Source of the DNA: a virus
Lineage: Duplodnaviria; Heunggongvirae; Uroviricota; Caudoviricetes
Direction: 5' to 3' (one strand)
DNA: 64,000 nucleotides
Virus record (IMG/VR): IMGVR_UViG_3300028887_000002
Span: 212,278 to 276,277 of that record
Shown: one piece after another, positions 2,714-53,741 of the stretch
Layout: every line of letters starts with the position of its first letter
How positions within the stretch are numbered: the first letter of the stretch is position 1
The notes under the pieces: generated by a model
What the model was told of the DNA's origin: nothing
Databases searched by the model: none
The model's input: the letters and a program-made list of their open reading frames with translations, nothing else
Made by a program: the position numbers and the translations under genes

Positions 2714-2717
2714 AGTA

Positions 2718-3553: not shown

Positions 3554-3574
3554 ATTCAATTAAATATTTTTTAA

Positions 3575-3615
3575 TAAATATTTGGTTGTTTGAAAAATAG
3601 TTTATATTTTTGCCA
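3575..3615 (+). promoter_or_regulatory. Bacteroidota-type promoter (TTTG 3581..3584, TATTTTTG 3605..3612, 20-nt spacing); part of a conserved divergent promoter block that is also present at 24364..24456
   Basis: Matches the -33 TTTG / -7 TAnnTTTG consensus. The ~60-nt block is about 80% identical to 24380..24440. Confidence 0.6.
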
Positions 3616-4222: not shown

Positions 4223-4395
4223 TAGATTCGTTTGATGTTGATAAAAGAGGTTATATAGAACATCATGGGTATGATATTAATGTCAATGATGCAAAAACCG
4301 ACCCAATCGGGTTCTTAAATTTCTTTTCAGAAAAATATGAAGAACCAGAAGATTGGTATGAAAGGGCAGAGCATGGTGATTTTGATAACGATTAA
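4219..4395 (+). CDS. possible small ORF (58 aa, GTG start overlapping the upstream stop as GTGA)
   Basis: Open frame VIDSFDVDKRGYIEHHGYDINVND... ending before a terminator hairpin. Below the ORF-track size cut-off. Confidence 0.3.
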   Translation: MIDSFDVDKRGYIEHHGYDINVNDAKTDPIGFLNFFSEKYEEPEDWYERAEHGDFDND

Positions 4396-4459
4396 ACTGC
4401 TTCGCATAATCCAAGTTCATCATATCTTATAATAAACCCAATAGATTACTTAACTATAT

Positions 4460-4492
4460 AAGCGAATCAATATTTGGTTCGCTTTTTCTTTT
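4460..4492 (+). terminator. rho-independent terminator-like hairpin (AGCGAA ... TTCGCT followed by TTTTTCTTTT)
   Basis: 6-7 bp stem plus T-run read directly from the sequence. Confidence 0.5.
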
Positions 4493-4531
4493 ATATTCAC
4501 TTGTTTTTATTTGTTCCCATAACTATTTTCA

Positions 4532-21956: not shown

Positions 21957-22216
21957 TACTTCAACAATTTGCTTCTAATCTGACGCATTACTGATTCGGT
22001 TATCTGGTCAACATATCTGTCAACGCTTTCGTCCTTTGAGGATTTTACTCGTTCGGGAAGTCCTTTGTCTTTGGTTTTTGCAAACTTGCGTACTTCTTTC
22101 CTTGTCATTGAGTCTGCGGCTTTCTTTACCTCTGGACTTGCATTATCCAGTTCGCCCTTCTTGTAGGCATCAACTAACCTGAAAAAGCGGGCCTGTTTCT
22201 TACTCTTCGCTGGCAT
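21956..22216 (-). CDS. small lysine-rich hypothetical protein (86 aa)
   Basis: ORF whose start overlaps the downstream gene by 1 nt. Confidence 0.45.
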   Translation of the reverse strand: MPAKSKKQARFFRLVDAYKKGELDNASPEVKKAADSMTRKEVRKFAKTKDKGLPERVKSSKDESVDRYVDQITESVMRQIRSKLLK

Positions 22217-24363: not shown

Positions 24364-24389
24364 AATAAATGAAAATATTTTCTAATAAA

Positions 24390-24425
24390 TATTTGGTGTA
24401 TTGAAAAATAACAATTATTTTTGCC
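24390..24425 (+). promoter_or_regulatory. Bacteroidota-type promoter (TTTG 24393..24396, TATTTTTG 24416..24423); second copy of the conserved divergent promoter block
   Basis: Same architecture and about 80% identity to 3575..3615. It drives the small ORF at 24457 and, by read-through, tnpB. Confidence 0.6.
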
Positions 24426-24605: not shown

Positions 24606-25950
24606 ACTTGATACGCAACTACACATACCGCCTCTACTCCTCCAAGCACCACAAGGCTTTGGCGAGCCTCATCACGACGGCAAACCACACGTGGAACCAT
24701 ATCGTCGCCCTGTGCCACAGGTACTACCGCCGATACGGGAAGTCCGTGTCGGAGGGACAACTGAAGCGCCACATGGCGAAGATGGCGAAGAGGGACAGGT
24801 ATATGTCAAAGTTGCACTCACAGTCGCTCCAGGCAATATGTGAACGGTACGAGGACGCGCTGAAACAAGCCTTCAAGATAAAGGGTCGTGGATTGCCCCA
24901 CGCCCGAAGGATGTTCGGGAAAGGCTCGGTGCTGTTCAAGGGCAACGGTGGGTATGTCCTTGAAGCCGTAGGCAACAAGGGCGTACTGCGCATAAACAAA
25001 CTGGGGAAAAACTGGAAGTTCCGCTTCAAACTAACACGTCAGTGGGGCGAGGTAAGGAACGTCACGGTAAAAAGGGATGAAGACGGCTACTACTACCTGA
25101 CGGTATGCTGCAACGTCCCCGACGAACATCTCGAAAGGGAAGGTTACGCCTCCATCGGGATGGACTTCGGGATGAAGACGTTCCTCACGCTGTCGGACGG
25201 CACTGCCGTGCAGATTCCCGACTACCACAGGAAGGCGCTTGCCGAACTGAAGGCTGCCGACAGGTCGCTGTCGCACAAGCGCAACGCAAAGGTCTATGGT
25301 TCATCATACCGCAGGGCGAAACACCACAGGCAGGTCGCCTATGCCAAGGTCACCAACAGGCGGTCGGACTTCCACTGGAAACTCGCGCACGAACTGTGCA
25401 GGAAGTACAGTTTCATCGCCATCGAGGACTTGAACATGAAGTCCATGCAGATGCACAGGAACTGGGGAAGGAAGGTCTCTTCCCTTGGGTACTCGGAGTT
25501 TGTAATGAAACTCATGGTCGTTGCAGAGAAGTACGGTACGGTCGTCCACAAGATTGACCGCTGGTATGCATCCAGCCAGACTTGCAGCAAGTGCGGGTAT
25601 GTGTACAAGGGAACGAAAGACCTTAAAGTCCGCGAGTGGACTTGTCCTGTCTGCGGTACCGTCCACGACAGGGACGTGAACGCGGCTATTAACATATTGA
25701 ATGTCGCCTTAAACGACATAAGCGGGAAGGGCGTTTCCCGCGTCGGGAGCAATAGTAAGACCCCCAAGGGGCAACCCTCGGAGGCAGTTGCGCACGGGTC
25801 TTGCGACCCCGCTACCGACCAAGAATCCCACTCACTTTGATTTGTTTTCAACAGTGGTGGGAGTACGTCAATGGGCTTCAATTGAAGCACCATATCCCAA
25901 GAAACTGTTCCTTGAACAGCAACTGGAACTTGCACGGCTCGGCAGTATGA
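24606..25950 (+). mobile_element. IS200/IS605-family tnpB-only (IS1341-like) element, GC-rich insertion
   Basis: A block of roughly 55-60% GC with abrupt boundaries in ~35% GC DNA. It contains an intact tnpB plus about 105 nt of GC-rich 3' region with a perfect 14-nt palindrome (GCTTCAATTGAAGC) consistent with a right end / omega-RNA scaffold. Confidence 0.7.
24608..25840 (+). CDS. tnpB: TnpB (OrfB) RNA-guided RuvC-like nuclease, apparent TTG start
   Basis: N-terminal YTYRLY resembles the TnpB start. RuvC-I is GMDFG, RuvC-II is AIEDLN, the zinc finger is CSKCG...CPVCG and RuvC-III is DRDVNAAINI. Confidence 0.85.
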   Translation: MIRNYTYRLYSSKHHKALASLITTANHTWNHIVALCHRYYRRYGKSVSEGQLKRHMAKMAKRDRYMSKLHSQSLQAICERYEDALKQAFKIKGRGLPHARRMFGKGSVLFKGNGGYVLEAVGNKGVLRINKLGKNWKFRFKLTRQWGEVRNVTVKRDEDGYYYLTVCCNVPDEHLEREGYASIGMDFGMKTFLTLSDGTAVQIPDYHRKALAELKAADRSLSHKRNAKVYGSSYRRAKHHRQVAYAKVTNRRSDFHWKLAHELCRKYSFIAIEDLNMKSMQMHRNWGRKVSSLGYSEFVMKLMVVAEKYGTVVHKIDRWYASSQTCSKCGYVYKGTKDLKVREWTCPVCGTVHDRDVNAAINILNVALNDISGKGVSRVGSNSKTPKGQPSEAVAHGSCDPATDQESHSL

Positions 25951-27037: not shown

Positions 27038-27070
27038 TTTGGTAGTTTCAAAATAACCGATTATATTTGC
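27035..27070 (+). promoter_or_regulatory. Bacteroidota-type promoter (TTTG 27037..27040, TATATTTG 27061..27068)
   Basis: Matches the consensus with 20-nt spacing. Upstream of the gene at 27098. Confidence 0.55.
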
Positions 27071-28223: not shown

Positions 28224-28796
28224 ATGGAAATACTAGTTAAAGAATTTTGTGATGGTTACGGACGGAATGTCAAAATCCCATCAGATGTTCTTTCCAAGGC
28301 GATTGAACGTTATAAAACTGAAACTAACAAATTGGAGAATAGTTTTGGTTGTTTGTTAGAATACAGAAAACTTCCATTACAAATGTCGGTTTCTGATATT
28401 AGTCATAAAATATCATCAATTGAACAAAACGGAGATAATAGTCTAATATGTAAGATTGAGACATTCAAATCGCCTCTCAATGTTTTGGATGAAATATTAG
28501 AAAACGAACCCGAAACACTTATGCCAGTAGTAAGCGGTTGGAAGGATGAAAATGGTGAATATAATATTCATTCAATAAATTTCGTACCAAATGTCACGGA
28601 AAATCAATTTGATTGCAAATACCAAGGCAGACTGGTCAATCAGGGAATGACATTATGCTTTGCTGATGAGGATGTCAACTTCCCGAACTGTTCGGAGGAT
28701 TGTCCTAAATATAAAAAGTACGAACCAAAAGAACCTAAATACACTACGGATGAGAATGGCAATGTAGTAATTGACTTGGTTGACGAAAATAATTAA
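28224..28796 (+). CDS. hypothetical protein (190 aa)
   Basis: ORF. Confidence 0.5.
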   Translation: MEILVKEFCDGYGRNVKIPSDVLSKAIERYKTETNKLENSFGCLLEYRKLPLQMSVSDISHKISSIEQNGDNSLICKIETFKSPLNVLDEILENEPETLMPVVSGWKDENGEYNIHSINFVPNVTENQFDCKYQGRLVNQGMTLCFADEDVNFPNCSEDCPKYKKYEPKEPKYTTDENGNVVIDLVDENN

Positions 28797-30893: not shown

Positions 30894-31580
30894 ATGACAG
30901 ACTTTAGAAACTATGCAGTGAAGGGGCTTGGCATTAGTAGCAATGCCTTCGACCAGTACACAAAAAGTGTAAGTGCAAGATACGGAACAAGTTTCGTAAA
31001 CCCCACAATCATTGAGGAGAGACAACTGAACGTTGCACAAATGGATGTGTTCTCACGCCTTATGATGGACAGAATCATATTCATTGGCACCGACATTGAC
31101 GACTACACAGCAAATGTTGTAGAGGCACAACTTTTATATTTAAGTAGCGTTGATGAGAACAAGGACATATCATTGTACCTCAACACCCCTGGCGGTAGCG
31201 TATATGATGGACTTGCAATCTACGACACAATGCAGTATGTGAAATGTGATGTATCAACCGTATGTATGGGTATGGCCGCTTCAATGGGGTCAATTCTCCT
31301 ATCGGCTGGAACCAAGGGCAAACGATATGCATTGCCACACTCACGTGTCATGATACATCAGCCACTCGGCGGTATTTCACAGGCACAATGCTCCGACATT
31401 CAGATTACAGCCAACGAAATCCAAAAGTGCAAGGACGAACTCTTCAAGATATTGTCCGAGAATACTGGACAGCCGTTGGAGAAAATAAATACCGATGGCG
31501 ACAGGGACTTCTGGATGACGGCGAACGAGGCATTGAAATATGGTATTATTGATGAGATTTTTGGAAAGCAGGGAAAATAA
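30894..31580 (+). CDS. clpP: ATP-dependent Clp protease proteolytic subunit ClpP
   Basis: YLNTPGGSVYDGLAIYD, the Ser nucleophile in GMAASMGS, His in MIHQPLGG and DRDFWMTANEALKYGIID. Near-canonical bacterial ClpP along its full length. Confidence 0.85.
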   Translation: MTDFRNYAVKGLGISSNAFDQYTKSVSARYGTSFVNPTIIEERQLNVAQMDVFSRLMMDRIIFIGTDIDDYTANVVEAQLLYLSSVDENKDISLYLNTPGGSVYDGLAIYDTMQYVKCDVSTVCMGMAASMGSILLSAGTKGKRYALPHSRVMIHQPLGGISQAQCSDIQITANEIQKCKDELFKILSENTGQPLEKINTDGDRDFWMTANEALKYGIIDEIFGKQGK

Positions 31581-31615: not shown

Positions 31616-32449
31616 ATGAACACAAGAAGATTAATCACAATCGGAATCATTTTAGCGGTAGTTATTATTCTCATGTCATGCTTTATGAGATGTTCAAAGG
31701 TTGACAGCGCAGAGGTTGGTATCAAGTTCAACAAGTTGAGCCTTACCGAACAGGGAACATTGGACGCAACAGTCGTTACGGGTTATACGTGGTACTGCCC
31801 AGTCACAACAGACCTCCATACCTATCCAGTGTTTGTACAGAGAAAGAACTACACACCATTTACGGTTAATACGAAGGACGCAGCCGAATTCACGATGGAC
31901 CCGACAATCGCCTACCAGATAAACCGTGACCGTGCCATTGACATCTTCCAGAAATACCGCAAGTCATTGGAAGAAATCGAAGACGGATATATGAGAACTG
32001 TTATCTATGACGCATACCGTATCACTGCCAATAGATATACATCCGACAGTATTATGGGCAATCGCGCCCGTTTCGAGAGCGAAGTACGCATTATGCTCGA
32101 CACAGCACTTTCTAACGAAGGATTTATGGTAACTGAGTTCACTTCGCAAATAACACCGCCAGCATCACTCCGCGCAATGATAGACTCGAAGAATGCTGCA
32201 ATACAGTCAGCACTTAAAGCCGAAAACCAAGTGAAGGAAGCAGAAGCCAATGCAAAGATTGCTGTGGCTAAGGCTGAAGGTGAAGCCCAAGCGTTGAAGA
32301 TTAAGGCTGACGGCGAAGCATATTATAACAGAACGGTAGCCGCCTCGTTGAACAGCATCCTTGTCGAACAATACGCAATTGAAAAGTGGAACGGACAGAT
32401 GCCACAGGTCACAGGCAACGGCGGAATGCCATTCATCAACTTGAAGTAA
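31616..32449 (+). CDS. SPFH/Band-7 (stomatin/HflC-like) membrane protein
   Basis: N-terminal TM helix, SPFH core and C-terminal Ala/Glu-rich coiled coil (AEANAKIAVAKAEGEAQALKIKADGEA). Confidence 0.75.
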   Translation: MNTRRLITIGIILAVVIILMSCFMRCSKVDSAEVGIKFNKLSLTEQGTLDATVVTGYTWYCPVTTDLHTYPVFVQRKNYTPFTVNTKDAAEFTMDPTIAYQINRDRAIDIFQKYRKSLEEIEDGYMRTVIYDAYRITANRYTSDSIMGNRARFESEVRIMLDTALSNEGFMVTEFTSQITPPASLRAMIDSKNAAIQSALKAENQVKEAEANAKIAVAKAEGEAQALKIKADGEAYYNRTVAASLNSILVEQYAIEKWNGQMPQVTGNGGMPFINLK

Positions 32450-38155: not shown

Positions 38156-38800
38156 TTAACGAATATAGTTGCGGATGATACGGGAAACAGTTTCATTAAT
38201 ATTATTTTCCCTCCGATTTTTCCAACCCTCACCTTTAATATAATTTGTTCTACCATGAAGATAATTGTCTATAGTATGACCTATTTCGTTATTTTGTAGG
38301 AATTCTTTATATTCATCATCGGTTTCAAAATCATATTTTTCTCTGCCTATAGGAATATCACCATATTCTTCAAACTTACCATTCCAATCAATCTTTTCCA
38401 TATCCCTATCCCAATCAATATCATGAGGACTTTTATAGTGATACCCAAAGAATACAGGCCCAGTTGCATTACTTCCGTCAGACCACCAACCATCATTATC
38501 CTTTACATATACATCATCACCTATAGGCCGTAGTGATAAATTTCTACCAAATTGTTTAGACAAACCTTTGCTAGCACTTGTACTAAAATCTCTAGCTCTA
38601 TTATCTTCTTTTTTATATTCATTCCGATTTTTATCCCAATCGTCTCGTTTGGAAGGGTCAACATACCTTTTGTAAGCAGCGTCGGCTTTTTTCTGTGCCT
38701 TTCTTGCCGCATTCATATAAGTTTTCCAATCAAGTTCGTTGATTGCTTCTCTGACAATATTCCTTAGGTCAGATTCTGTAAGTCTAATTCTTTGTTTCAT
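38156..38800 (-). CDS. hypothetical protein with CTS-like N-terminus MKQRIRLTESDLRNIVREAINE and Trp/Asp/Glu-rich body (214 aa)
   Basis: N-terminal motif shared with the proteins at 48840..49190 and 3134..3553 and with the module at 22234..22596. Late-promoter-like element upstream. Confidence 0.6.
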   Translation of the reverse strand: MKQRIRLTESDLRNIVREAINELDWKTYMNAARKAQKKADAAYKRYVDPSKRDDWDKNRNEYKKEDNRARDFSTSASKGLSKQFGRNLSLRPIGDDVYVKDNDGWWSDGSNATGPVFFGYHYKSPHDIDWDRDMEKIDWNGKFEEYGDIPIGREKYDFETDDEYKEFLQNNEIGHTIDNYLHGRTNYIKGEGWKNRRENNINETVSRIIRNYIR

Positions 38801-38825: not shown

Positions 38826-38848
38826 TATGATTATAAATAGTACAAGAT
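38826..38848 (-). promoter_or_regulatory. putative phage late promoter element (minus-strand GTACTATTTATAATCATAATAAC, core TATTTAT at 38833..38839, 33 nt from the ATG)
   Basis: Conserved with the elements upstream of the capsid, scaffold and 48840 genes at similar spacing. Confidence 0.45.
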
Positions 38849-40475: not shown

Positions 40476-41609
40476 ATGGCAAAGGAAACTGAAAAGATGG
40501 AAAACAAGTTTGAATTGTATTCACCGAAGGAAATCAAGGCTCACCTTGACAACCACGTAATCGGACAGGAAGAAGCAAAGAAGATACTGTCGGTTGCAAT
40601 ATACAACCACTACAAGCGTATGCTTTCGACGAAGTATGACATCGGCAACGACAATCCAGCATACAAGGATGTGACAATAGAGAAGTCCAACATCATACTG
40701 CTCGGCAACACTGGTACTGGAAAGACATTCCTCGTACAGACAATTGCAAAGATGCTCGGTGTACCCCTGTTCATACAGGACTGCACCAAACTGACCGAAA
40801 GCGGTTATGTGGGAGAGGATGTAGAGAACTGCGTTGGCGGACTGCTTCGTGCCTGTGATTATGACGTTGAAAAGGCTGAAATGGGCATAGTAATACTTGA
40901 CGAGGTCGATAAGATTGCAAAGACCACAAAGGGCAATATGTCAATAACCCGTGACGTTGGTGGTGAAGGTGTACAGCAGGGTCTGCTGAAGATAGTTGAA
41001 GGAAGTGTTGTAGGCGTACCACCCCAGGGCGGTAGAAAGCACCCAGAACAGAAACTCGTGGAAGTCGATACACGCAACATATTGTTCATAGCACTTGGCG
41101 CATTCCCAGGCATCGACAAGGAGATTGAAAGACGTTTCAACAAGACAAGCGTTGGTTTCAGGAACTCTTCAGACACCAAGACAATATCAAACCTCACGCA
41201 GGACACAATCCTCGGCAAGGTAAAGGGCGATGACCTCAAGAACTTCGGACTTATACCAGAATTCGTAGGCAGGTTCCCAGTTATTACGCACACCAACCCG
41301 TTGAAGGTGGAGGATATGGTAAGGATTATCACCGAACCGCAGAACAGTCTTCTGAAGCAGTACCAGAAACTGATGGACATGGATAACGTTGACCTTGTGT
41401 TTACTGACGACGCCATAAGGATTGTCGCCGAGGAAGCGTTGAAGTGTGAAACGGGTGCAAGAGGTCTCAGGGGCATAATGGAACAGATACTCACCGACGT
41501 GATGTATGAATATGCCGAAACAAAAAAGAATACCAAACTCAAGATTGACAAGGCGTTCGTTGAAAAAATCCTCGGAGAGAAGGAAACACTTTACGGTGAA
41601 ACGGCTTAA
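40476..41609 (+). CDS. clpX: ClpX-like AAA+ unfoldase lacking the N-terminal C4 zinc-binding domain
   Basis: Walker A GNTGTGKTF, pore-1 loop GYVGEDVE, Walker B IVILDEVDKI, VGF in place of the IGF ClpP-docking loop, LIPEFVGRFPV and sensor-2 TGARGLR. Begins at the region that corresponds to about residue 60 of E. coli ClpX. Confidence 0.9.
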   Translation: MAKETEKMENKFELYSPKEIKAHLDNHVIGQEEAKKILSVAIYNHYKRMLSTKYDIGNDNPAYKDVTIEKSNIILLGNTGTGKTFLVQTIAKMLGVPLFIQDCTKLTESGYVGEDVENCVGGLLRACDYDVEKAEMGIVILDEVDKIAKTTKGNMSITRDVGGEGVQQGLLKIVEGSVVGVPPQGGRKHPEQKLVEVDTRNILFIALGAFPGIDKEIERRFNKTSVGFRNSSDTKTISNLTQDTILGKVKGDDLKNFGLIPEFVGRFPVITHTNPLKVEDMVRIITEPQNSLLKQYQKLMDMDNVDLVFTDDAIRIVAEEALKCETGARGLRGIMEQILTDVMYEYAETKKNTKLKIDKAFVEKILGEKETLYGETA

Positions 41610-41729: not shown

Positions 41730-43280
41730 TCAATCTTTCTTCTTCCATACATACTTGAACAGCCCGCAGTTCCATACACGGTCGTAGCCCAACTCACGGG
41801 TCATCTCGGTCTCGGTCATTGTAAGGGGAAGTCCGTATTTCTTATGGAGTATCTGCTTTCTAAACAAAAACTTATGGTATCTCTTGCATTCCCCTGTCTT
41901 ATAATATGTATAGTCTGGTTCGGTAATACTTTCAAGTTCAAATCCAAGATGTGTATATAGATTATCCGATGGGTTCAATGTCCACCTCCTGTCAGCAAAC
42001 GACTTTACTATTGTCGGGTTATAGTTCTTTATAAAATAAGAAAACAACTTTCCACCAACACCCTGACATATATATCGGCTGTCAGTCGCAAACCTCACAA
42101 GATTCCATTCTTCACCATTCTTTGTAAAAGACATAACCCCAATGAGAATATTTTCATAGTATGCACCAACATGGATGGTAGAATTCGCAAAACCCTGTAT
42201 GTGGTTGGCGTTTAAAAATGCTTCAGCGGTCTTCTTATCAAGAACACTTATATTGCATTTCCTTCCGCCAACTTTTGGCTTTGAATCATCATCAATTCCA
42301 AGCGAGTGGCATATCTTGTCGAATATTATATCCTTATGTTGTACATATTCATCCTCGAATATCTGAATAAGTCCGACACCCTTGCTATTGGCCAATAGTG
42401 TCTTGTTAAGGTGATATGACTTGTCCTTTCCGCCGAACCATTCCGAATGCCATCTAAGACCGTTATATTCAATCCCCACATTGAAACTGGGTATATATAT
42501 GTCAACCTCCAGTCCGTCAAGCAACGATTTGTCGTGTAATATAACCTTATCCTCACCCAACTTGTTGCATAGCATTTCATATATTTCAAGTTCGGCGTAT
42601 GAAAGGTGTTTCCCGCATTTAGGACAACCCTTCCCCTGCAATAACGCATCAGGATTCATTTTAAACACTCCGTGGGGCTTCCCGTTGGAACCAATCTTGT
42701 TACATATTATACTGACATCAATTTGGCTTGCCTTGTAGTCGACCAATGAATAGTCGTAGTCATCGTCCTTATGAACAGCCTTGCACTTCTCAATGAATGT
42801 TTCATTGTCATATCTGTTCCTTTCAGCATTCCTGTCAATTGTCAATCTCTTATGCGAACAACCTTTCAGATGCACCACTGGTTCCTGCCAGAATTCGCCA
42901 TACTCATTACCATCCGCATCAAGTTCACGACATATTATACAGACTGGTGTATGCATATTGACATATTCAACCTTAGAATAGTCAAGTTTCTCCCCCTTAT
43001 GCACCTGCTTGAAGCGTTCAACAACTTCCTCCGTTGTAAGCGACTTAGACCTTGAAATCTTATTGCCACGTTTCCTTGGGTGCGACTGCCCCTTGAACAG
43101 GTTGTTTGGTGTTGCCTTGAAAGCACCATATTCCTTACCGTTCTCGTCAAGGTCACGGTCTATTATAATGACGTTTGTTCGGTTGTTCACATATACGACC
43201 TCCGAAAAGTCAAGGTTCTCGTTGGGGTGGGACGCCTTGACCTTCTCAATGAACTCGTCCATTGTCATTCGCCTACTCAT
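41730..43280 (-). CDS. multi-domain nuclease-like protein, paralog 1 (three N-terminal ~55-aa Cys/His repeats, PD-(D/E)xK Vsr/DUF559-like core DIYIPS..IEYNG..WH, conserved C-terminal tail)
   Basis: Internal repeats FIEKxKxVH..DYSxVxY...IIC...G..HG.F..P..LL.G.GCPKCG. The C-terminal 40 aa are almost identical to those of the next gene (LHKKYGLPLTMTETEMTRELGYDRVWNCGLFKYVWKK). Confidence 0.55.
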   Translation of the reverse strand: MSRRMTMDEFIEKVKASHPNENLDFSEVVYVNNRTNVIIIDRDLDENGKEYGAFKATPNNLFKGQSHPRKRGNKISRSKSLTTEEVVERFKQVHKGEKLDYSKVEYVNMHTPVCIICRELDADGNEYGEFWQEPVVHLKGCSHKRLTIDRNAERNRYDNETFIEKCKAVHKDDDYDYSLVDYKASQIDVSIICNKIGSNGKPHGVFKMNPDALLQGKGCPKCGKHLSYAELEIYEMLCNKLGEDKVILHDKSLLDGLEVDIYIPSFNVGIEYNGLRWHSEWFGGKDKSYHLNKTLLANSKGVGLIQIFEDEYVQHKDIIFDKICHSLGIDDDSKPKVGGRKCNISVLDKKTAEAFLNANHIQGFANSTIHVGAYYENILIGVMSFTKNGEEWNLVRFATDSRYICQGVGGKLFSYFIKNYNPTIVKSFADRRWTLNPSDNLYTHLGFELESITEPDYTYYKTGECKRYHKFLFRKQILHKKYGLPLTMTETEMTRELGYDRVWNCGLFKYVWKKKD

Positions 43281-44958
43281 TGCTGACTCCTTTCTTCCAT
43301 ACGTACTTGAATAGTCCGCAGTTCCAGACGCGGTCGTAGCCCAACTCGCGGGTCATTTCGGTTTCGGTCATCGTGAGGGGTAGGCCGTACTTCTTGTGGA
43401 GTATCTGCTTGCGGAAGCCGAACTTGTGGAAACGCTTAGTTCCGTCAATCTTCTTGTTGTAGTAGTAATAGTCAGGCTTAATTGTCTGAACCATATTGAA
43501 ACCGAGTTTGGTATAAAGGTTATCCTCCGCCCACATAGTCCAGCGTCTGTCGGCAAATGTCTTTACTTCATCTACATTATAGTTTCTGATGAAATGTTTG
43601 AAGAGTTTACCGCCCACGCCTTGGCATACTGCGTCATATAGGCTAGCATATCTTGTGAGATTCCATTGACCTGGAGTTTCTTCAATAAAAGTCATAACGC
43701 CAACCAACGCATTATTATAGTATGCACCAAGATATAAACTTGAATTAGCAAAACCTTGTATATGGTTTGTTTCAAGGAATATTTTGGCAACATCCTTGCA
43801 TATTTCCGTTACAGTGCATTTTCGGCCAGGAATAACCGTTTGCCCTTCTATTCTTACGTTTAAGAGGTGACGTATCTTTGATAATACTAAATTCTTGTGA
43901 TGGATGAACTCGTCATCATATATATGTATTAGTCCAATACCGAGTTTGTTACACTCAATCGTCTTGTTTAAGTGATAGTTCCTGTCCTTGCCGTACTTTT
44001 CAGTATGCCACATATTTCCATCATATTCAATGGCAATCTTCTTTGAAGGTATATAAATGTCAAGTTCCCTACCTTTTAGGATTTTCCTGTCTGCATAACA
44101 ATCAAATCCCAATGACCTGATAAATTCCATTATTTCTAGTTCCGCACTGCTCTGACGCTTGAAGGTCATATTTTCATTAACAGCCGTCACCTGTTTAACG
44201 AGCAAGTCGTGGAATTCCTTTGATACAAGTGGAGTATCGTACAATTCTCGATATCTCAACTTATCCAGTCCATGCTTTTTCAAATGGACATTGTCAATAC
44301 GTGCGAGTTTTTCTCCGCATACTTGACATACAACAAATTTGTCAGGGTCGGTTTCCATTGAACGGTCTAAGGATTTATTTACTAACGCGAAATAAGGACG
44401 TTCTTCAGGGTGTTCTTCAAGATATTGAAACTTTGTCATATTATGGGTGTTCCTTAAATGCACCTCAAATGCACCACTCTTGTTATCCAAGTCTGTTGTA
44501 GTCCAATCACAATAAGGGCATTTTTTGGCTTCTTTGTCCTTTACTAATTTTACTTTCAGCCATTGTTCCCACCAGTAGTTTCCTGTACGTCTGTAATACA
44601 TTTGACGTTCATGTAACGACGGAGTTGGAATACCATACTCCTTCTCAATATAAGTTGTTAATACACCGCCCTTATTTCCAATATCAATACTTTCAAAGTC
44701 AGTTTTTTCGTCATACACGACATAGTGTGTCATATTGTCAGGCTCAGGGTATTTTTCAGTATGATAATCCTCCACGACATAATCGTATTTGAAACCTTGA
44801 TTACCCTTCTTTTTAATAGGTATATTGTTTCGGTCAAGAATTTCACGGATTCTTTTCTTTCCGACATGATGTTTTAAGGCTAAAGTTTCAATACGTTCTT
44901 CACCATTTATATATTCTTTGCAAATTTCAGTTTCATCCAATGATGTTTTCGCTTTCAT
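43273..44958 (-). CDS. multi-domain nuclease-like protein, paralog 2 (561 aa; ELDIYIPSKKIAIEYDGNMWH core, GNAT-like CQGVGGKLF motif)
   Basis: Same architecture as paralog 1. About 85% nucleotide identity over the 3' ~130 nt. Confidence 0.55.
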   Translation of the reverse strand: MKAKTSLDETEICKEYINGEERIETLALKHHVGKKRIREILDRNNIPIKKKGNQGFKYDYVVEDYHTEKYPEPDNMTHYVVYDEKTDFESIDIGNKGGVLTTYIEKEYGIPTPSLHERQMYYRRTGNYWWEQWLKVKLVKDKEAKKCPYCDWTTTDLDNKSGAFEVHLRNTHNMTKFQYLEEHPEERPYFALVNKSLDRSMETDPDKFVVCQVCGEKLARIDNVHLKKHGLDKLRYRELYDTPLVSKEFHDLLVKQVTAVNENMTFKRQSSAELEIMEFIRSLGFDCYADRKILKGRELDIYIPSKKIAIEYDGNMWHTEKYGKDRNYHLNKTIECNKLGIGLIHIYDDEFIHHKNLVLSKIRHLLNVRIEGQTVIPGRKCTVTEICKDVAKIFLETNHIQGFANSSLYLGAYYNNALVGVMTFIEETPGQWNLTRYASLYDAVCQGVGGKLFKHFIRNYNVDEVKTFADRRWTMWAEDNLYTKLGFNMVQTIKPDYYYYNKKIDGTKRFHKFGFRKQILHKKYGLPLTMTETEMTRELGYDRVWNCGLFKYVWKKGVSNE

Positions 44959-45124: not shown

Positions 45125-47068
45125 CTATCTCAATTCGAGAGTTGACCAGTGTACCAAACCGTCGCAACGGATTGCACCGTAGTAGCGGTTGTTAACGAGT
45201 TTCTTCGCGTAACGGGTCATGATACCCTTTACTGGTGCAAAGTTGAAAGGATTTGTTACAGTTGGGGTCAAAGCCATCGGGATATAAGGTGCATAGATGT
45301 AACCAGTATCCAAGAGGCTTGTTCCGTGGTGACCCATGATGAGTGACCAGTAAGGTGCATACGGGTCAACGATTACTTTGTAACGTCCCTGCAACGAACC
45401 AATCTTTTCGATACCCATGTTGTACTGTTCGCTTTCAGCAGAAGCGTCAGTTACGTGGAAGTATTCGAGGTCGTTAAGAACTGCGCTGATTTCAGCCGAT
45501 ACAACGATGAAGTTTGCACCGCCTTGAAGTGTCGACTTTTGGATTTGTGCCGAAATCATGTTAATCTTGGTCATAAGGGTCTGGTTCCAGTCCTTCTGAG
45601 TGTAAACGGTAGAAGTTGTACCAAGTCTCTGCCATCCGTTGTAGTCCCAACGAGCCTGCCATGGAGCAGCCTTACGAAGGTCGCGGAGGATTTCACGGTC
45701 AAGTTCTGCTGCAATCTGTTCAGAAAGGATTGCGGTAAGTTCTGCTTCAGCATCAATGTTGTGGAAAGCAGATACGTCCTGTGCCAATTCAGGTGACCAG
45801 GTTGCTCTCAACTTTCTTTCTTCAACAGCAACGGTAACTGAAGTGAGTTCGAACGATACTTCGCCCATTTCGGTTTCGAGTTCGAGTGAATCGTACTGAA
45901 TCCAAGCGATGTCGAACAACTGGCTTCCGTCAGTAGCGTTGTCAGTGTTAGGACTGCCGTTGGTGAACAATGCGCTAGCGTCAACACCGATATAGCCGTC
46001 AATAGTACCACCCTGTGCAGTGCAAGGCTTTGTGAGGTCAAGTTCGATATACAACTTACCCTGAGCATCACAGATGTCACCGTAGTTTACGGTGCCATGT
46101 CCGTACTTCTGAGTAACAACTCTGAAAGGAACAGATTCGTTCTGCTTGAAAGACGAGGTCTTCAAGGTGTCGCTACCTTCAACGGCAACTGGAGCGATTG
46201 CGTTCTTGGTGATAACCTTCAATGAAGCGAGGAATGCTTCGGTATCCATTTCGTTTCCGTCAGGACCTGTCAGACGACCTGCGTTGTATGAAGCGAAACC
46301 GCTAACTTCGAGGATAACAGATGCAACAGCACCGTTAAGCAACGGAAGTTCTTCTTCGCTTGCTACTGGAACGAATTCGCCGTTTTCAGCAAGTCTTACG
46401 ATGTCAGCCTTACCAACCTTGATGGTTGCCTTACCCTTCGAGTTATCATAGAGGAAATCATCATAGAACAAGTCGTAGAGCGATTTCTTCATATAGGTGG
46501 TAACTTCGGGTTCAGTAGTTCTGCTGCTGGTCTGAACTGGGTCAACTACTGTGTCGTCAAGATAGTAGCGGTTGTACTGCTCGTTGTATCTTGCATCCAG
46601 TGGAGTTGCTGGCCAAGTACCTGTTGGTTCTTCAGCGTTCTTGTCATAGAATCTGTTGGTTCTCTTGTAACCCATGAGACCAGTGTGGCTTCCTTGGTTA
46701 CCATCAACCATTTCGTCGTAATCCCACTTGCGTTCGCTGGTTACTGGACGGATGTAGAACAACTTACCTACTGGGAGGTTCATTGCCTGTACTGATACGA
46801 TGTCGTTAGCAAGGAGTTTGCTGAAGACACGTCTAATCAACGGGAACACTACGGTTTCGAACGAACCTGAGTTATCCGATGCAGTTGCTTCGTAGATAAG
46901 GTTCTTTGCCTGGTTTTCGTAAAGTGTTGCCATATTTTCCTTGATGTGACCGTTAAGGCCGTTAAGGAATCCGAGCTTATCCCATCTCTTCTGGATATCT
47001 TCGCGGATTTTCTTTTGTGCATCGTATTCAATTGAGCCGACTGCACCTGATGTTAAAAGTTCTCTCAT
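45125..47068 (-). CDS. major capsid protein, T4 gp23-like
   Basis: Multiple long blocks align to T4 gp23: VQAMNLPVGKLFYIRPV / VQPMNSPTGQVFALRAV; WSPELAQDVSAFHNIDAEAELTAILSEQI / YSIELAQDLRAVHGMDADAELSGILATEI; GANFIVVSAEISAVL / GNFIIASRNVVNVL; IYAPYIPMALTP / IYYAPYVALTP; NFAPVKGIMTRYA / NFQPVMGFKTRYG. Start taken at the ATG at 47066..47068. Confidence 0.9.
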   Translation of the reverse strand: MRELLTSGAVGSIEYDAQKKIREDIQKRWDKLGFLNGLNGHIKENMATLYENQAKNLIYEATASDNSGSFETVVFPLIRRVFSKLLANDIVSVQAMNLPVGKLFYIRPVTSERKWDYDEMVDGNQGSHTGLMGYKRTNRFYDKNAEEPTGTWPATPLDARYNEQYNRYYLDDTVVDPVQTSSRTTEPEVTTYMKKSLYDLFYDDFLYDNSKGKATIKVGKADIVRLAENGEFVPVASEEELPLLNGAVASVILEVSGFASYNAGRLTGPDGNEMDTEAFLASLKVITKNAIAPVAVEGSDTLKTSSFKQNESVPFRVVTQKYGHGTVNYGDICDAQGKLYIELDLTKPCTAQGGTIDGYIGVDASALFTNGSPNTDNATDGSQLFDIAWIQYDSLELETEMGEVSFELTSVTVAVEERKLRATWSPELAQDVSAFHNIDAEAELTAILSEQIAAELDREILRDLRKAAPWQARWDYNGWQRLGTTSTVYTQKDWNQTLMTKINMISAQIQKSTLQGGANFIVVSAEISAVLNDLEYFHVTDASAESEQYNMGIEKIGSLQGRYKVIVDPYAPYWSLIMGHHGTSLLDTGYIYAPYIPMALTPTVTNPFNFAPVKGIMTRYAKKLVNNRYYGAIRCDGLVHWSTLELR

Positions 47069-47087
47069 TATAATCAATTTTTTTATT

Positions 47088-47109
47088 CTTATTTGTTAAA
47101 TAAATATTC
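47088..47109 (-). promoter_or_regulatory. putative phage late promoter element upstream of the capsid gene (minus-strand GAATATTTATTTAACAAATAAG, core TATTTAT at 47100..47106)
   Basis: Conserved motif and spacing (about 32 nt to the ATG) shared with the scaffold, 48840 and 38156 upstream regions. The downstream AAATTGATTATAATG is shared with the 38156 leader. Confidence 0.45.
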
Positions 47110-47130: not shown

Positions 47131-48672
47131 TTATTTTAAGCGTTCAACCCTCTCCATCAGACTGATGGTCTTCTTGAGGTCGTCGCTCAGAAGTGTTGTT
47201 TCTACTAACTTGTTATTTTCTGAAGATGACTTGCTTTCGGTGATAGGTGTGCCGTTGAGTGTCTTCTTGATGTCGTTAATCGGGTGGCTCCTCTTAAGTT
47301 CCTCGTTAATTTGGGTATAGAGTGCCTTCGACTCGTTGATGGACTTAACAGCGTTGAACCTGTTGATAATATTCATCTTCTCTTCCTTGGTTGTCGAGTT
47401 CTCAGTGACAAGTTTTATAATCTTTGCGAGGCTGCTGTTGACTACGGTGGCTTCATTCAACTGCTTTGTGATTTTTGCCGCGATATTCTTCAACTGTTTG
47501 TTCTCTGCAAGGATTGCGTTTGCCTTTCTGCGGAGGTTTTCGTTCATACCTTCTACAGTACCTTCGTATTCGCCATTGTCTCTTGAAATCGCGTGGCTTC
47601 CGTAAGCAGTGGAATCCTTTTCGGACTTCAATGTCTTGTGCATTCCACGTTCGTTTCCATGTCCGAAGCGTGACTGTTCCTCAAGTGCTTCGTCATATTC
47701 GTAGTCGAAGTCAAACTCTTCGGTATCATCATCGCCATAGTCAGCAAGCAAATCTTCGGTAAAGTCTTCGTCCTCGATGTAGTCCTTACCGAATTCGCGT
47801 CTCATAGCATTCTTTGCGGCACGTTTGCTACTTGGATTCCTTCTTTCGTCAGTTTCCTCGTCGCATTCAAGGCATACTTCGTAGAGAGGTTCCTCGCCCT
47901 TCTTGACTTCCTTTGAGTAAGGAGTTGAATCGCCAGCATCTCCGACCCAGCGCTTAACGTTGTTCTTTGCGCCCTTCGGAACACCGCCGTCGAAATCCAT
48001 ACCACCCTTACGTCCGTCATCAGCGGGCATGGTCATCGCACTCTTGTCCTGGTAACCGCCAGTGTAACCAAGGTTATCCGACTCGTTCATCATAGTTGTG
48101 TCGTCTGTTTCAAAATTATTATCGGCTTCCCCACTCAGGTCAATGATATATTCCTTGTCCGTAGTGTCATCGGTCAGTGTCAGATTGTCGCCGTTCATTA
48201 CAACGCGAACGCCGTCCTCTGGGGTGACCGTTTGGAACACCTTGTGCAATTGGGCATCATTCATTCCCGTGCAGTCATATTCGCCGTCACCGCATTTGAA
48301 CTGTTCAAGTTCATCGTCCCATGTCGTGTCTTCTTCACCTGTCTCTGGTGCTTCAGTAGCATCAGTTGCGAGGTCTTCCGTACCTGCTACCGTTTCGGTT
48401 TCGCCTTCTGGCGTTGCTTCTGCGGTTTCGGTTTCCACATCGGTTACCTGTTCAGTCTCTGGAGTGGACGGGATATCTTCCTTCTGGTAGGTATCGTCCT
48501 CTTTCTTTGTTTCTTCCTTCTTTTCGGAAAGAATTTCCCTCAAGTTCTGGTTTACTGCTTCTCCGAGGAGGTTCTTCAACGATTCCTTCGTGCTTTTTAC
48601 GAATTCTTCATCGAGAGCCTTCTTTTCGCTAACCAGGTTCTTGATATATTCGCTTCTAATTTTACTAGCCAT
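47131..48672 (-). CDS. acidic prohead scaffold/core protein (gp22-like by position and composition, 513 aa)
   Basis: Immediately upstream of the gp23-like gene. Highly acidic with coiled-coil termini and many (L/I)-x-E motifs. Confidence 0.5.
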   Translation of the reverse strand: MASKIRSEYIKNLVSEKKALDEEFVKSTKESLKNLLGEAVNQNLREILSEKKEETKKEDDTYQKEDIPSTPETEQVTDVETETAEATPEGETETVAGTEDLATDATEAPETGEEDTTWDDELEQFKCGDGEYDCTGMNDAQLHKVFQTVTPEDGVRVVMNGDNLTLTDDTTDKEYIIDLSGEADNNFETDDTTMMNESDNLGYTGGYQDKSAMTMPADDGRKGGMDFDGGVPKGAKNNVKRWVGDAGDSTPYSKEVKKGEEPLYEVCLECDEETDERRNPSSKRAAKNAMRREFGKDYIEDEDFTEDLLADYGDDDTEEFDFDYEYDEALEEQSRFGHGNERGMHKTLKSEKDSTAYGSHAISRDNGEYEGTVEGMNENLRRKANAILAENKQLKNIAAKITKQLNEATVVNSSLAKIIKLVTENSTTKEEKMNIINRFNAVKSINESKALYTQINEELKRSHPINDIKKTLNGTPITESKSSSENNKLVETTLLSDDLKKTISLMERVERLK

Positions 48673-48693: not shown

Positions 48694-48715
48694 GTTATTT
48701 TTAAAAATAAATATA
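48694..48715 (-). promoter_or_regulatory. putative late promoter element upstream of the scaffold gene (minus-strand TATATTTATTTTTAAAAATAAC, core at 48707..48713)
   Basis: Same core and spacing (35 nt) as the capsid upstream element. Confidence 0.4.
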
Positions 48716-48839: not shown

Positions 48840-49190
48840 CTACCACTTCAAATCTGAGACATCATTTATCGCGTTAGGAATCTCAATTGCACCAAATTCA
48901 ATTAGTTCAATCTCCTTATTTGTGCTGTCGGCTGGATTTATCTTTCCGCTAACATCAGTGATGTCTATTATATCGTAGTGTGGAAATTCCCTGCGTACTT
49001 TTTTCACAGCTTCCTTGTCCGAACCAGTTTCAGATATTGCGGCAACAAAAATTATATCGTCAGTCTCGTTGTAACACTCAATGCACTTCACGTACAAATC
49101 ACCAATATCTTCCTTCAGTACTCTCTTGACGGATTCCTTAACAATATTGCGCAAGTCTGATTCGTTAAGTCTTATAACTTTCTTTGTCAT
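48840..49190 (-). CDS. small prohead core / internal-protein candidate with CTS-like N-terminus MTKKVIRLNESDLRNIVKESVKRVLKE (116 aa)
   Basis: Sits at the position of T4 gp67/gp68 (just upstream of the scaffold and capsid genes). Carries the shared N-terminal motif. Late-promoter-like element upstream. Confidence 0.55.
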   Translation of the reverse strand: MTKKVIRLNESDLRNIVKESVKRVLKEDIGDLYVKCIECYNETDDIIFVAAISETGSDKEAVKKVRREFPHYDIIDITDVSGKINPADSTNKEIELIEFGAIEIPNAINDVSDLKW

Positions 49191-49221: not shown

Positions 49222-49240
49222 GTTTATAAATAGTTCCCCG
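49222..49240 (-). promoter_or_regulatory. putative late promoter element (minus-strand ACTATTTATAAACATAAAA, core at 49226..49232, 36 nt from the ATG)
   Basis: Near-identical to the element upstream of the 38156 gene. Confidence 0.45.
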
Positions 49241-49332: not shown

Positions 49333-49728
49333 ATGAAGAAGATTATACTTACAATGAGTGTTTTGTTCGCAATGGCTTTTGCCTGTGTAGCACAGGAAGT
49401 GCTTACGGCTACAAGGGTTGTCAAGTCAAGGGGCGCTGAAAGCGAATACGTATTGCCCAACATGAACGATGAGGTTGCTATCGAAAGACCTGTCCTTTCA
49501 AGGGGCGGTTGCGTGGTAAAGATTGATAACTGGACTGGATACTACATAGACCTCTGGGTCGACAAGAACTACAAGGGCAGACTTAACCCATGGGAAAACT
49601 CGCAGTTGATTATGCCCAACGGCTTCAACGAAATATACTGTAGGACTATGGGTGAATCGTACCAATGGTTGGCTGGGGGCGAATGTAACGAGCAGTTCGT
49701 ACTGTCAATGCCCGAAGAGGACGAATAG
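49333..49728 (+). CDS. secreted or periplasmic protein with signal peptide (MKKIILTMSVLFAMAFACVAQ)
   Basis: Hydrophobic N-terminus with a plausible cleavage site. Confidence 0.5.
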   Translation: MKKIILTMSVLFAMAFACVAQEVLTATRVVKSRGAESEYVLPNMNDEVAIERPVLSRGGCVVKIDNWTGYYIDLWVDKNYKGRLNPWENSQLIMPNGFNEIYCRTMGESYQWLAGGECNEQFVLSMPEEDE

Positions 49729-49789: not shown

Positions 49790-49826
49790 TTATTTGGTAG
49801 TTTCAAAAATAGTGTATATATTTGCA
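49790..49826 (+). promoter_or_regulatory. Bacteroidota-type promoter (TTTG 49793..49796, TATATTTG 49817..49824), followed by the conserved 25-nt leader at 49839..49863
   Basis: Consensus match with 20-nt spacing. Confidence 0.55.
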
Positions 49827-52034: not shown

Positions 52035-52559
52035 ATGGTGAAGATGTTTAACAAAAAAAGAAAGGAAATTAATATGATTGAAAATTGGGTTTATAATGAC
52101 ATTGTCCTTTATTCAAAAGGATGGTACAAGAGCCACGGAAATATGGTAGAAGACCTTGGTTATTTGTTCACCAAGATTTACGGATGGACACCGACCACAG
52201 AGGAAGAAGTTGCAAGAATGATGCTTCGCGTTATCGACAAGTTATATGAGGCGAAGGAAGTGAAGTTTTCATCGGGTTCCTATATGAAGTCATTTGAATA
52301 TCTGTTCAATGAAATTAACCACAAAGTACGATTTTATAACAAATCATATTCATTAGCAACGATTGAGATATGTTTATCAATATTGTTTGACTTAGATACG
52401 TCCGAGATAAAGTTAAATCCACCCCACTACGGAAAGAAGGAACATTTTAGGCTTGGCGGTTTTCAAAATTATCCAATAAGTATGACCTATAGTTCCGTTT
52501 TTCATAGTAAACTATTGAAAAACATTCTTTTCCTGCTTCGCCGAGCCACAACTTCTTAG
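52035..52559 (+). CDS. hypothetical protein whose last ~10 codons lie in GC-rich IS DNA (C-terminus probably altered by the insertion)
   Basis: The AT-rich ORF runs into the GC-rich block at about 52530 and terminates inside it. Confidence 0.45.
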   Translation: MVKMFNKKRKEINMIENWVYNDIVLYSKGWYKSHGNMVEDLGYLFTKIYGWTPTTEEEVARMMLRVIDKLYEAKEVKFSSGSYMKSFEYLFNEINHKVRFYNKSYSLATIEICLSILFDLDTSEIKLNPPHYGKKEHFRLGGFQNYPISMTYSSVFHSKLLKNILFLLRRATTS

Positions 52560-53741
52560 GCCACTCGCGTGACGGTCGTCCATTGGAGGGTTCTCCACAG
52601 GCGTGAATTCGGGCGAACTCAGCCCTACTCCTAATATTCTAAGCCCCTCGTCCCTGATATTCAGGGCGGCGTTGAGGTCGCGGTCGATGACCGCCCCGCA
52701 ACTGGGGCATATCCATTCCCTGTCGTTCAGGGTCAGGTCTCTCTTGATATATCCGCAGTCGTGGCACGTCTTGCTTGACGGGTAGAACCGTCCCACGAGG
52801 ACGAGCGTCCGCCCGTACCACTGGCACTTGTATTCCATCATCCTGCGGAACTCGCCGAGGTTCACCTCGCATATGCTCTCGGCGAGGCGGTGGTTCCTGG
52901 TCATCCCCTTGACGTTCAAGTCCTCCATGCAAACGACTTGGTTTTCGTCGATTAACTTGTTGGAAACGTCGTGGAGATACCAGTCCTTCCTGTGGCATAC
53001 CTTCTCGTATGCCTTGGCGAGCCTTATCCTCGCCTTGTCCCTGTTTTTACTGCCTACCTGCTTGTGGGACAACTGTCGGTGAAGCCTTTTCAGCCTCTTC
53101 GAGACGGACTTCTTGAAGTGCATGTTCGCATAGCGCGTACCGTCGCTTGCAATAACGAAGTCCTTCACTCCGAGGTCAATGCCTATGATGCCCTTGGCGT
53201 CGCTGCGCTGTTCGACCTCGCATTCGATTAGTACTGACAGCAGGTACTTCCCGCTTGCGCCCCTCGTGAGGGTCAGCGACCTCACGCTCGACTGCTGGCG
53301 GTTGAGGGTTATCTCGTCCAGTCTGGAGCACTTGAAGTGGATGTCGGACAGTTTCTTCGTCAGGTCGATGCGGTTGCCCCTTATGCCGATAAAAGCATCG
53401 GATGGGAAACGGCAGGATTCCACGTTGGAGTGCTTGCGCGACTTGAACTTCGGGAAGCCCCTGTGGTGCTTGAAGAAATTGTCGTAGGCGGTGTTCATGT
53501 CCCTAACAGCCTGTTGAAGTACCTTCGAGTGTGCATCCTTCAGCCAGGGGAACTCCTTTTTCAAGTCAACGAGGTGTTTTATTGCATCAACGCCCGATAC
53601 GGATTTGTTTTCCTTCTCGTAGGCATCCTTTCGGTAGGCAAGGCACTTGTTGAAGACAAAACGGCAGCAACCGAGCAACTGGTTGATTATGCGCTGTTGT
53701 TCGTCCGTCGGGTAGAGCCGTATCTTTATAGCCTTCAACAT
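52512..53741 (-). CDS. tnpB: TnpB (OrfB) RNA-guided RuvC-like nuclease
   Basis: N-terminus MLKAIKIRLYPTDEQQ, RuvC-I GIDLG, RuvC-II CMEDLN, zinc finger CHDCG...CPSCG and RuvC-III DRDLNAALNI. Confidence 0.85.
   Translation of the reverse strand: MLKAIKIRLYPTDEQQRIINQLLGCCRFVFNKCLAYRKDAYEKENKSVSGVDAIKHLVDLKKEFPWLKDAHSKVLQQAVRDMNTAYDNFFKHHRGFPKFKSRKHSNVESCRFPSDAFIGIRGNRIDLTKKLSDIHFKCSRLDEITLNRQQSSVRSLTLTRGASGKYLLSVLIECEVEQRSDAKGIIGIDLGVKDFVIASDGTRYANMHFKKSVSKRLKRLHRQLSHKQVGSKNRDKARIRLAKAYEKVCHRKDWYLHDVSNKLIDENQVVCMEDLNVKGMTRNHRLAESICEVNLGEFRRMMEYKCQWYGRTLVLVGRFYPSSKTCHDCGYIKRDLTLNDREWICPSCGAVIDRDLNAALNIRDEGLRILGVGLSSPEFTPVENPPMDDRHASGLRSCGSAKQEKNVFQ

Follow-up and report, generated by a model that had tools for sequence, protein, structure and literature searches.

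The window (the whole 64,000-nt stretch of viral DNA analysed here) is part of a metagenome contig of 339,275 bp, JGI Ga0310696_10000014, and codes for a gp23-like major capsid protein, a scaffold-like protein, a family B DNA polymerase, two TnpB proteins, and ClpP-like and ClpX-like proteins. Immediately upstream of the scaffold-like gene, which is followed by the capsid gene, lies 48840..49190, a gene for a small protein that starts with a short motif (hereafter the tag) recurring elsewhere in the window in otherwise unrelated proteins. The features concerned are listed below; they are all on the minus strand, and the open reading frames and N-terminal sequences are as described in an earlier note on this DNA.

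48840..49190, minus strand: tagged gene, 116 aa (profile score 58.9 bits, E=2e-17)
49110..49190, minus strand: tag of the 48840 protein, residues 1-27, MTKKVIRLNESDLRNIVKESVKRVLKE, with LNE10, VKE19 and LKE27 sites
38156..38800, minus strand: tagged gene, 214 aa (profile score 48.0 bits)
38735..38800, minus strand: tag of 38156..38800, residues 1-22, MKQRIRLTESDLRNIVREAINE
22234..24363, minus strand: multi-module protein, 709 aa, with a predicted ADP-ribosyltransferase (ART)-fold N-terminal domain, a central region, an internal tag and an acidic 93-aa tail
22516..22596, minus strand: internal tag of 22234..24363, residues 590-616, MTKRTIRLTESQLKRVISNGVKRVINE (profile score 45.7 bits; ATG at 22596)
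3134..3553, minus strand: partial member, 139 aa (profile score 16.3 bits, E=4e-4)
3488..3553, minus strand: tag of 3134..3553, residues 1-22, MEITEKQIRDAVKNSMKRILNE
47131..48672, minus strand: scaffold-like acidic protein, 513 aa, its C-terminal part homologous to a gene found beside the capsid and protease genes of relatives
45125..47077, minus strand: gp23-like major capsid protein, 650 aa (Pfam Gp23, E=4e-71)
46889..46897, minus strand: codons of the predicted capsid maturation site I-Y-E↓A, aligned with LTE↓A of T4 gp23

These scores come from a profile HMM of 57 motif copies, run against all 1,059 six-frame ORFs of the window. The earlier note had placed the motif at the N-terminus of four proteins, of which 48840..49190 and 38156..38800 are clear members; 3134..3553 keeps the second half of the motif and the final LNE, is without the K-x-IRL leader and counts as partial, while 2718..3116 (minus strand) scores at chance level (3.4 bits, E=3.9) and was rejected. 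The same note had seen the motif open the C-terminal module of 22234..24363, which is where the profile finds it (residue 590). Of the five proteins that the note had listed, three are therefore full members, one is partial and one does not belong. Once the tag is removed, the cargos are mutually unrelated (BLASTP E>0.2), in line with the original description. None of Pfam, PHROGs and NCBIfam models the motif; searched against them, it does not emerge as a known, unrelated family, and the four window proteins give no significant match, be it for the tag or for the tagged protein. What is conserved is the peptide: between window copies, third codon positions differ in 50-55% of cases vs 32-43% for positions 1 and 2, and in each pair of tags 3-5 identical residues are written with different codons, which argues for selection on the peptide and not on the DNA, bears out the earlier claim of protein-level conservation and led us to reject a DNA-level repeat. 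As for the cargos, that of 48840..49190 is acidic (pI 4.2) and a whole-protein search of 5.8 billion proteins returned only two relatives of this 116-aa protein, both near-identical; a single-sequence AlphaFold model shows residues 10-25 as helical, at low confidence (pLDDT 40). The cargo of 38156..38800 belongs to an 'ELDWKTY.NAA' family that is tagged also in three related loci (L017, L036 and L042) and occurs as an internal module of another carrier (P0207).

The tag is a basic (pI about 10), amphipathic peptide of ~26 residues with a helical hydrophobic moment and the consensus M-(N)-K-K-x-I-R-L-T-E-S-D-L-H/R-R/N-I-V-K-E-S-V-K/N-R-V-L-K-E; it was rejected as a signal peptide since it has no hydrophobic stretch. 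Its end is abrupt. Each column from the initiator Met through a closing [L/I]-x-E carries 2-4 bits of information, and those straight after it <0.6 bits, with Gly as the commonest next residue; in the 58 unique IMG/VR copies, which were retrieved with motif-derived patterns that inflate conservation inside the tag but have no bearing on how abruptly the tag ends, the final positions are L (47) or I (6), a variable residue and E (52), and the middle Glu, present in 40 of 58, is not invariant. The (L/I/V)-x-E tripeptides highlighted in the earlier note are a general property: 166 of the 168 complete tagged proteins from related loci (median length 124 aa, median cargo pI 4.9) have two or more [LIV]-x-E within their N-terminal 30 residues. 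The tag is basic, the cargos mostly acidic and the scaffold acidic. Divergent variants of the tag retain a heptad-like pattern.

How widespread is the tag? Searching IMG/VR with back-translated motif patterns gave 64 loci (58 unique), in which the tag nearly always begins at residue 1-5 of proteins of 80-230 aa with unrelated C-termini; this is the case for ~52 of the 58 unique loci and for 129 of 147 top-scoring proteins, and ~10% of tag copies are internal or fused. A HMMER search of 1.84 billion representative proteins matched 9,111 clusters (E<=1e-3), of which 2,128 remain at E<=1e-10, and the carriers among the matches listed come from metagenome sources only and bear no informative names. 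Many members are only 35-75 aa long and consist of the tag and a short, very acidic tail, and the best 120 matches of a word-index search are all proteins of <=74 aa. Pfam finds almost no domains in the 147 top-scoring carriers and none in common (only eight matches, each in a single member). The tag was not found in isolate genomes or cultured phages, its carriers being phage-like metagenome contigs and MAG contigs, and motif strings have no occurrence in the published text searched. A divergent form (M.LSERKLRRIVKEEI.RVL.E) is carried by at least ten small ORFs of the uncultured 484-kb phage LR756508, in the 45 kb around its gp21, scaffold and capsid genes.

The tag is not confined to N-termini, a point missed by the earlier note: in multi-module proteins it recurs internally, 2-4 times. 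Many high-scoring carriers have 2-4 copies, each ahead of a different module, in a list of top 150 profile matches that is skewed to multi-copy proteins because scores add up. In the top-scoring carriers, 107 of 164 internal copies have no Met start, so that gene fusion does not explain them and they qualify as genuine inter-module elements. The internal tag of the 709-aa window protein is likewise a conserved feature, since its closest relatives (P0270-P0275) carry two internal tags each. This protein, which has no close IMG/VR relatives and no match among the sequences of solved structures, has only an ADP-ribosyltransferase domain and the tag as recognisable parts. The former, predicted to be of the polyvalent-protein type, is supported by a match of the N-terminal 220 residues to Pfam ART-PolyVal (E=7e-5, below the gathering score), by homologs in which PF18760 is combined with PF18819, PF18798 and PF18762, and by an AlphaFold model with a pLDDT of 84. 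The literature regards polyvalent proteins as packaged and injected (PMC5512222; PMC7824862), and T4 Alt, a packaged ADP-ribosyltransferase, is trimmed by gp21 at both ends (PMC9026906). By analogy, the 709-aa carrier looks like a packaged effector. Just after its gene, 21192..22216 (minus strand) codes for a DUF3008 protein of 86 aa and another protein of 254 aa. PHROG families similar to DUF3008 match N-terminal parts of far larger phage proteins, and the arrangement may represent a polyvalent protein split across separate genes.

The capsid protein of this phage has no close counterpart in cultured phages. Its best matches share 31-41% identity across about half its length and come from Rhodothermus RM378, Microcystis Mel-JY01 and Flavobacterium 'immuto' phages and from LR756508, and by megablast no GenBank phage matched the 10 kb around the locus. 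The protein is gp23-like, as the earlier note had it, and the cleavage-site logic is that of T4: in ~38 capsid proteins of the clade, [I/L]-x-E-A is invariant, except for its variable middle residue, at the column of the T4 gp23 LTE↓A site. The T4 prohead protease gp21 cuts after L/I-x-E (PMC9026906), and a 'hydrophobic, variable, Glu' pattern is common to the end of the tag and to the capsid [I/L]-x-E-A site. Residues ~116-395 of the capsid protein form a ~280-residue insertion, absent from the Gp23 Pfam model and from all cultured-phage homologs and conserved at ~66% identity within the rumen clade.

A second link to the head comes from the scaffold. Residues 28-46 of the scaffold-like protein (TKESLKNLLGEAVNQNLRE) can be aligned to positions 9-27 of the tag, the N-termini of clade scaffolds read MNKNIRSKVVKESLL...TESAVKTLLDEAVRDTYAKLLSE followed by an acidic run, and hhalign of the tag profile against the scaffold N-terminus profile gives P=7.5e-5 at a probability of 62%. 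The tag thus seems to resemble the scaffold N-terminus weakly, which is suggestive only. T4 (L071, L176) offers a parallel, in that IPII and IPIII start with MKTYQEFIAE↓A and the gp22 scaffold with MLKEQLIAE↓A, which are closely alike.

The third link is gene order. With the head proteins of Flavobacterium phage immuto as probes, we found 14 motif-selected loci to have a gp21 homolog no more than 3 kb from the tag gene, and others to have a portal, scaffold or capsid gene nearby; in relatives, one to four tag genes stand in tandem in the interval between portal and protease genes. In a reciprocal test on the best 80 JGI loci chosen by gp21 alone, independently of the motif, the tag was present in 50; of the 27 loci that extend 4 kb or more to each side, 19 have it. 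Tag density in these loci is ~0.43/kb in the 2.5 kb after gp21 vs ~0.04/kb on the scaffold/capsid side, with 13 copies directly downstream of gp21 on the same strand and 42 on the portal side. In the T4 gene order it is gp67 and gp68 that occupy the portal-protease interval. The earlier note had put the 48840 gene exactly at the gp67/gp68 place, which holds for relatives and not for this genome, where the tag gene is followed by the scaffold-like gene and then the capsid gene and no protease gene intervenes. Linkage is not universal: only one of 20 MAG loci with the tag has a head or packaging gene within 5 kb, and in large genomes most tag genes are scattered outside the head module.

In many relatives, a gp21-type protease adjoins the tag genes, and one also occurs in LR756508. 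Clade gp21 homologs retain the LNHP and GVSSRG motifs of T4, which we take to be the catalytic His and Ser motifs. The protease of this genome itself is assumed. Tblastn with Flavobacterium phage gp21 found no protease of this genome, a profile of nine rumen gp21 homologs found no gp21 in the window plus 10 kb on each side (84 kb of the 339-kb genome), and the contig is absent from the best 80 loci of the gp21 scan of JGI contigs; the best match to the gp21 profile, a 190-aa protein without the catalytic His (E=0.13), was judged spurious. The same 84 kb yielded, by profile search, no further tag copies either, so that the gp21-like (S77) protease and the additional motif proteins for which the earlier note had suggested looking were both missing there.

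Several observations on the head module and its surroundings deserve mention. The gp21 homologs of eight clade loci (L009, L010, L021, L036, L043, L055, L056 and L063) retain two sites, G-[IL]-L-I-E on the N-terminal side and [FY]-[VI]-E-[SAN] on the C-terminal side, the latter with a conserved helical tail (INEKI.KIKNIL) behind it; their appearance is that of self-processing sites and, possibly, of a targeting peptide of the protease's own, such as has been proposed for T4 gp21. In LR756508.1 (L175), the gp21 homolog (1490..3100) aligns as two pieces ~800 nt apart, just upstream of a homolog (4046..4939) of a 516/561-aa endonuclease-like family, and an intron or intein may split the protease gene. 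In the window, the capsid gene is followed at once by two paralogs of that family (41730..43280 and 43273..44958, minus strand, of 516 and 561 aa), which show PHROGs 'HNH/homing endonuclease' matches (E down to 1e-93) and weak Vsr/PD-(D/E)xK matches, and homologs follow the capsid gene in more than 20 related loci, a synteny oddly stable for a homing endonuclease. The 516-aa product of 1163..2713 (minus strand), which matches no family, has a homolog immediately upstream of gp21 on the same strand in nine protease-anchored loci and is probably another head-module protein; its gene is >40 kb from the capsid gene in this genome. Divergent from the tag gene 48840..49190, and where relatives have the protease gene, stands 49333..49728 (plus strand), coding for a 131-aa protein with a signal-peptide-like N-terminus (MKKIILTMSVLFAMAFACVAQ). 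Three IS605 OrfB/TnpB (Cas12f-like) genes are found in ~84 kb, at 24773..25840 (plus strand), at 52512..53741 (minus strand) and, outside the window, at L174:18027-19781, one of them beside the ADP-ribosyltransferase-fold gene and one near the tag/scaffold/capsid block. Pfam and PHROGs gave nothing useful for the neighbouring genes 190..1107 and 28224..28796 and for a 310-aa gene just beyond the window.

Tag genes also share a promoter-like element, TATTTAT, with head genes. The copies upstream of the genes considered here are the following:

49226..49232, minus strand: TATTTAT upstream of tag gene 48840..49190
38833..38839, minus strand: TATTTAT upstream of 38156..38800
3574..3580, minus strand: TATTTAT upstream of 3134..3553
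24385..24391, minus strand: TATTTAT upstream of 22234..24363
48707..48713, minus strand: TATTTAT upstream of the scaffold-like gene
47100..47106, minus strand: TATTTAT upstream of the capsid gene

The element lies 20-40 nt upstream of the starts at 49190, 38800, 3553 and 24363 and of the scaffold-like and capsid genes. It had been claimed for all members, and is not found ahead of the rejected candidate (2718..3110) or of the internal tag copy. It is not over-represented in the window (30 found vs 22 expected), its significance lying in its position: in related loci, it occurs within 70 nt upstream of 51 of 54 scaffold, 59 of 73 gp21 and 63 of 134 tag genes, vs 7% of short ORFs. A different pattern, TTTG-N17-23-TAnnTTTG, which we take to be the Bacteroidota promoter consensus, is ~four-fold enriched (14 copies in the window vs 3.4 expected), with 12 of the 14 on the plus strand, as in these examples at plus-strand gene starts:

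3581..3612, plus strand: TTTG-N17-23-TAnnTTTG
27038..27069, plus strand: TTTG-N17-23-TAnnTTTG
49793..49824, plus strand: TTTG-N17-23-TAnnTTTG
57668..57699, plus strand: TTTG-N17-23-TAnnTTTG

That plus-strand genes have Bacteroidota-type promoters while the minus-strand head and tag genes have TATTTAT suggests a strand-separated early/late programme. Among the former are a ClpP-family protease gene adjoining one for a Band_7/stomatin-like protein (30894..31580 and 31616..32449, plus strand), which resembles the cellular NfeD-stomatin pairing, and a separate gene for a ClpX-like AAA+ protein (40476..41609, plus strand); all three have host-type promoters. In genome collections scanned with a three-sequence tag alignment, the motif was found on MAG contigs only, from the gut of sheep, cattle, buffalo, yak, reindeer and horse, mostly binned as Bacteroidales. 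Because of this and of the promoter pattern, the host is very probably a gut bacterium of the Bacteroidota.

The reading that we favour, with a probability of roughly 0.6, is that the tag is a capsid-targeting (encapsidation) propeptide removed by the head protease, an analogue and not a homologue of the T4 capsid-targeting sequences. It is favoured because (i) the tag heads thousands of unrelated small proteins and ends sharply at a conserved [L/I]-x-E, (ii) tag genes cluster between portal and protease genes and share a promoter-like element with scaffold and protease genes and (iii) one carrier has a T4 Alt-like ADP-ribosyltransferase fold. The earlier note had already proposed cleavage by a gp21-type protease; the unrelated carriers, the sharp end and the head-gene linkage speak strongly for that proposal, and the missing gp21 in the window and the 10 kb on either side speaks against it. 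In the sequence of events that we infer, tagged proteins would be produced late in infection, along with head proteins, and the tag would dock its cargo on the acidic scaffolding core of the prohead, possibly by mimicking the scaffold's own N-terminal helices. A gp21-type prohead protease cutting after [L/I]-x-Glu would then take the tag off and, at internal tags, split modules apart, leaving the cargo within the capsid. Short acidic cargos would probably act as core peptides of the T4 gp67 type, while folded cargos such as the ADP-ribosyltransferase-fold protein would probably be ejected into the host with the DNA. The earlier note had seen in the whole set probable host-injected, anti-defence or host-takeover factors, and some carriers may indeed be injected and play an anti-defence role; many members, being short acidic peptides, are less suggestive of effectors than of disposable core proteins such as T4 gp67. 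A more ambitious version, which we hold only tentatively, is that the tag is a portable signal derived from the scaffold that marks all capsid-loaded or ejected proteins of a very large uncultured clade of T4-like Bacteroidota phages, with internal copies defining polyproteins that would be cut into effectors in the capsid.

Of the alternatives, the one that survives best, unlikely as we think it is, has the tagged proteins as accessory scaffold or core proteins like T4 gp67/gp68, which would help to build or size the large capsid and be degraded and expelled at maturation, undelivered. The portal-protease position, the many members of 35-75 aa that are little else than a tag and a gp67-like acidic tail, and the likeness of the tag to the scaffold N-terminus would all be expected under it. 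It does not account well for cargos that are hugely diverse and turn over fast (9,111 clusters), which is unexpected for structural parts of a core and is illustrated by the two close relatives only of the 48840 cargo, nor for folded domains (one of them with an ADP-ribosyltransferase fold) or for the many copies far from the head module.

Strong conservation outside the cleavage sites, which implies a specific binding partner, and the linkage of tag genes to the portal gene could also mean that the helix docks to another virion component, such as the portal or the inner face of the capsid shell, and stays uncleaved, as in cargo binding through MuF/SPP1 gp7 or the P22 scaffold. We regard this as improbable, since a conserved terminal [L/I]-x-E followed by a sharp drop in conservation fits a processing boundary, internal copies stand between modules and the capsid protein of the clade has T4-like cleavage logic. 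About as improbable is a role outside the virion, with the helix serving as an interaction or degradation tag, either a degron/adaptor for the phage's ClpX-like and ClpP-like proteins or a handle for a host factor. The window does encode both Clp proteins and the tag genes of big genomes are mostly scattered outside the head module, but tag genes are 6-10 fold enriched beside gp21 and the portal gene and share their promoter-like element with scaffold and protease genes, whereas the Clp genes are on the other strand and have host-type promoters. Finally, a conserved 5' end acting as a DNA-level element (a recombination cassette or translation-initiation region), for which the exchange of T-even internal-protein loci between conserved flanks might be cited, is very hard to believe in, as it is contradicted by the codon analysis (synonymous exceeds non-synonymous divergence within the motif), by the 107 of 164 internal copies without a start codon and by the heptad-like pattern retained in divergent variants.

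The propeptide reading brings the tag close to the T4 capsid-targeting sequences (propeptides of IPI, IPII, IPIII and Alt). In both systems, an N-terminal peptide is common to otherwise unrelated proteins, ends at a hydrophobic-x-Glu site of the type cut by gp21 and resembles the N-terminus of its own scaffold protein; the capsid is of the gp23 type here and the protease of the gp21 type in relatives of this phage, and one carrier with a predicted ADP-ribosyltransferase fold recalls Alt. The differences are equally clear. The tag has no sequence similarity to MKTYQEFIAE, which is why we speak of an analogue, and the tag HMM finds nothing in the T4 head region; with 26 residues vs 10 it is 2.5 times longer, is far more conserved and contains two or three potential cleavage sites; it spans far wider, more divergent phages and thousands of putative cargos; and there are internal copies as well, as many as four to a protein, for which T4 offers no precedent. 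Relative to the T4 sequences, the tag is thus longer, far more widespread and also used between modules of larger proteins. With T4 gp67/gp68, the tag genes of relatives share the place between portal and protease genes, the small size of their products and, in many cases, a gp67-like acidic tail, but there is no sequence similarity that we could find, and they are multi-copy and hypervariable whereas gp67 and gp68 are single conserved genes.

Parallels exist further afield. Like the tag, encapsulin cargo-loading peptides and P22 scaffold loading use a short portable peptide to send unrelated cargo into an HK97-fold shell; unlike it, these peptides are usually C-terminal and uncleaved, and bind the shell (encapsulin) or are engineered (P22). 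In the giant phages phiKZ, 201phi2-1 and SPN3US, a diverged gp21 homolog cuts many proteins of the head interior (inner-body and ejection proteins) after Glu, and their propeptides have redundant cleavage sites as the tag does (PMC9026906). These propeptides differ from the tag in having no conserved sequence and an S/A/G-x-E cleavage motif, and the phages belong to another lineage with another capsid protein family. Polyvalent proteins, often fused to MuF or portal domains (Iyer et al. 2017), are multi-module proteins presumed to be packaged and injected, and the 709-aa protein and its homologs appear to carry ART-PolyVal or other such domains. Here, however, the presumed handle is a short repeated helix and not a MuF or portal domain, and modules are separated by the tag instead of a dedicated polyvalent-protein peptidase domain.

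Should the tag prove to be an encapsidation signal, a search with a single short profile would be enough to catalogue which proteins, normally invisible to annotation, thousands of uncultured gut and rumen phages load into their capsids. In T4, such proteins include anti-restriction and host-takeover factors. If true, this reading would (i) extend the principle of capsid-targeting sequences beyond T-even phages, (ii) point to an origin of such tags as copies of the scaffold's own N-terminal sequence, (iii) provide a ready peptide for loading foreign proteins into Bacteroidota phage capsids and (iv) make polyprotein processing within a phage head directly testable, the internal-tag polyprotein strategy being one for which, to our knowledge, no precedent has been described in a phage.
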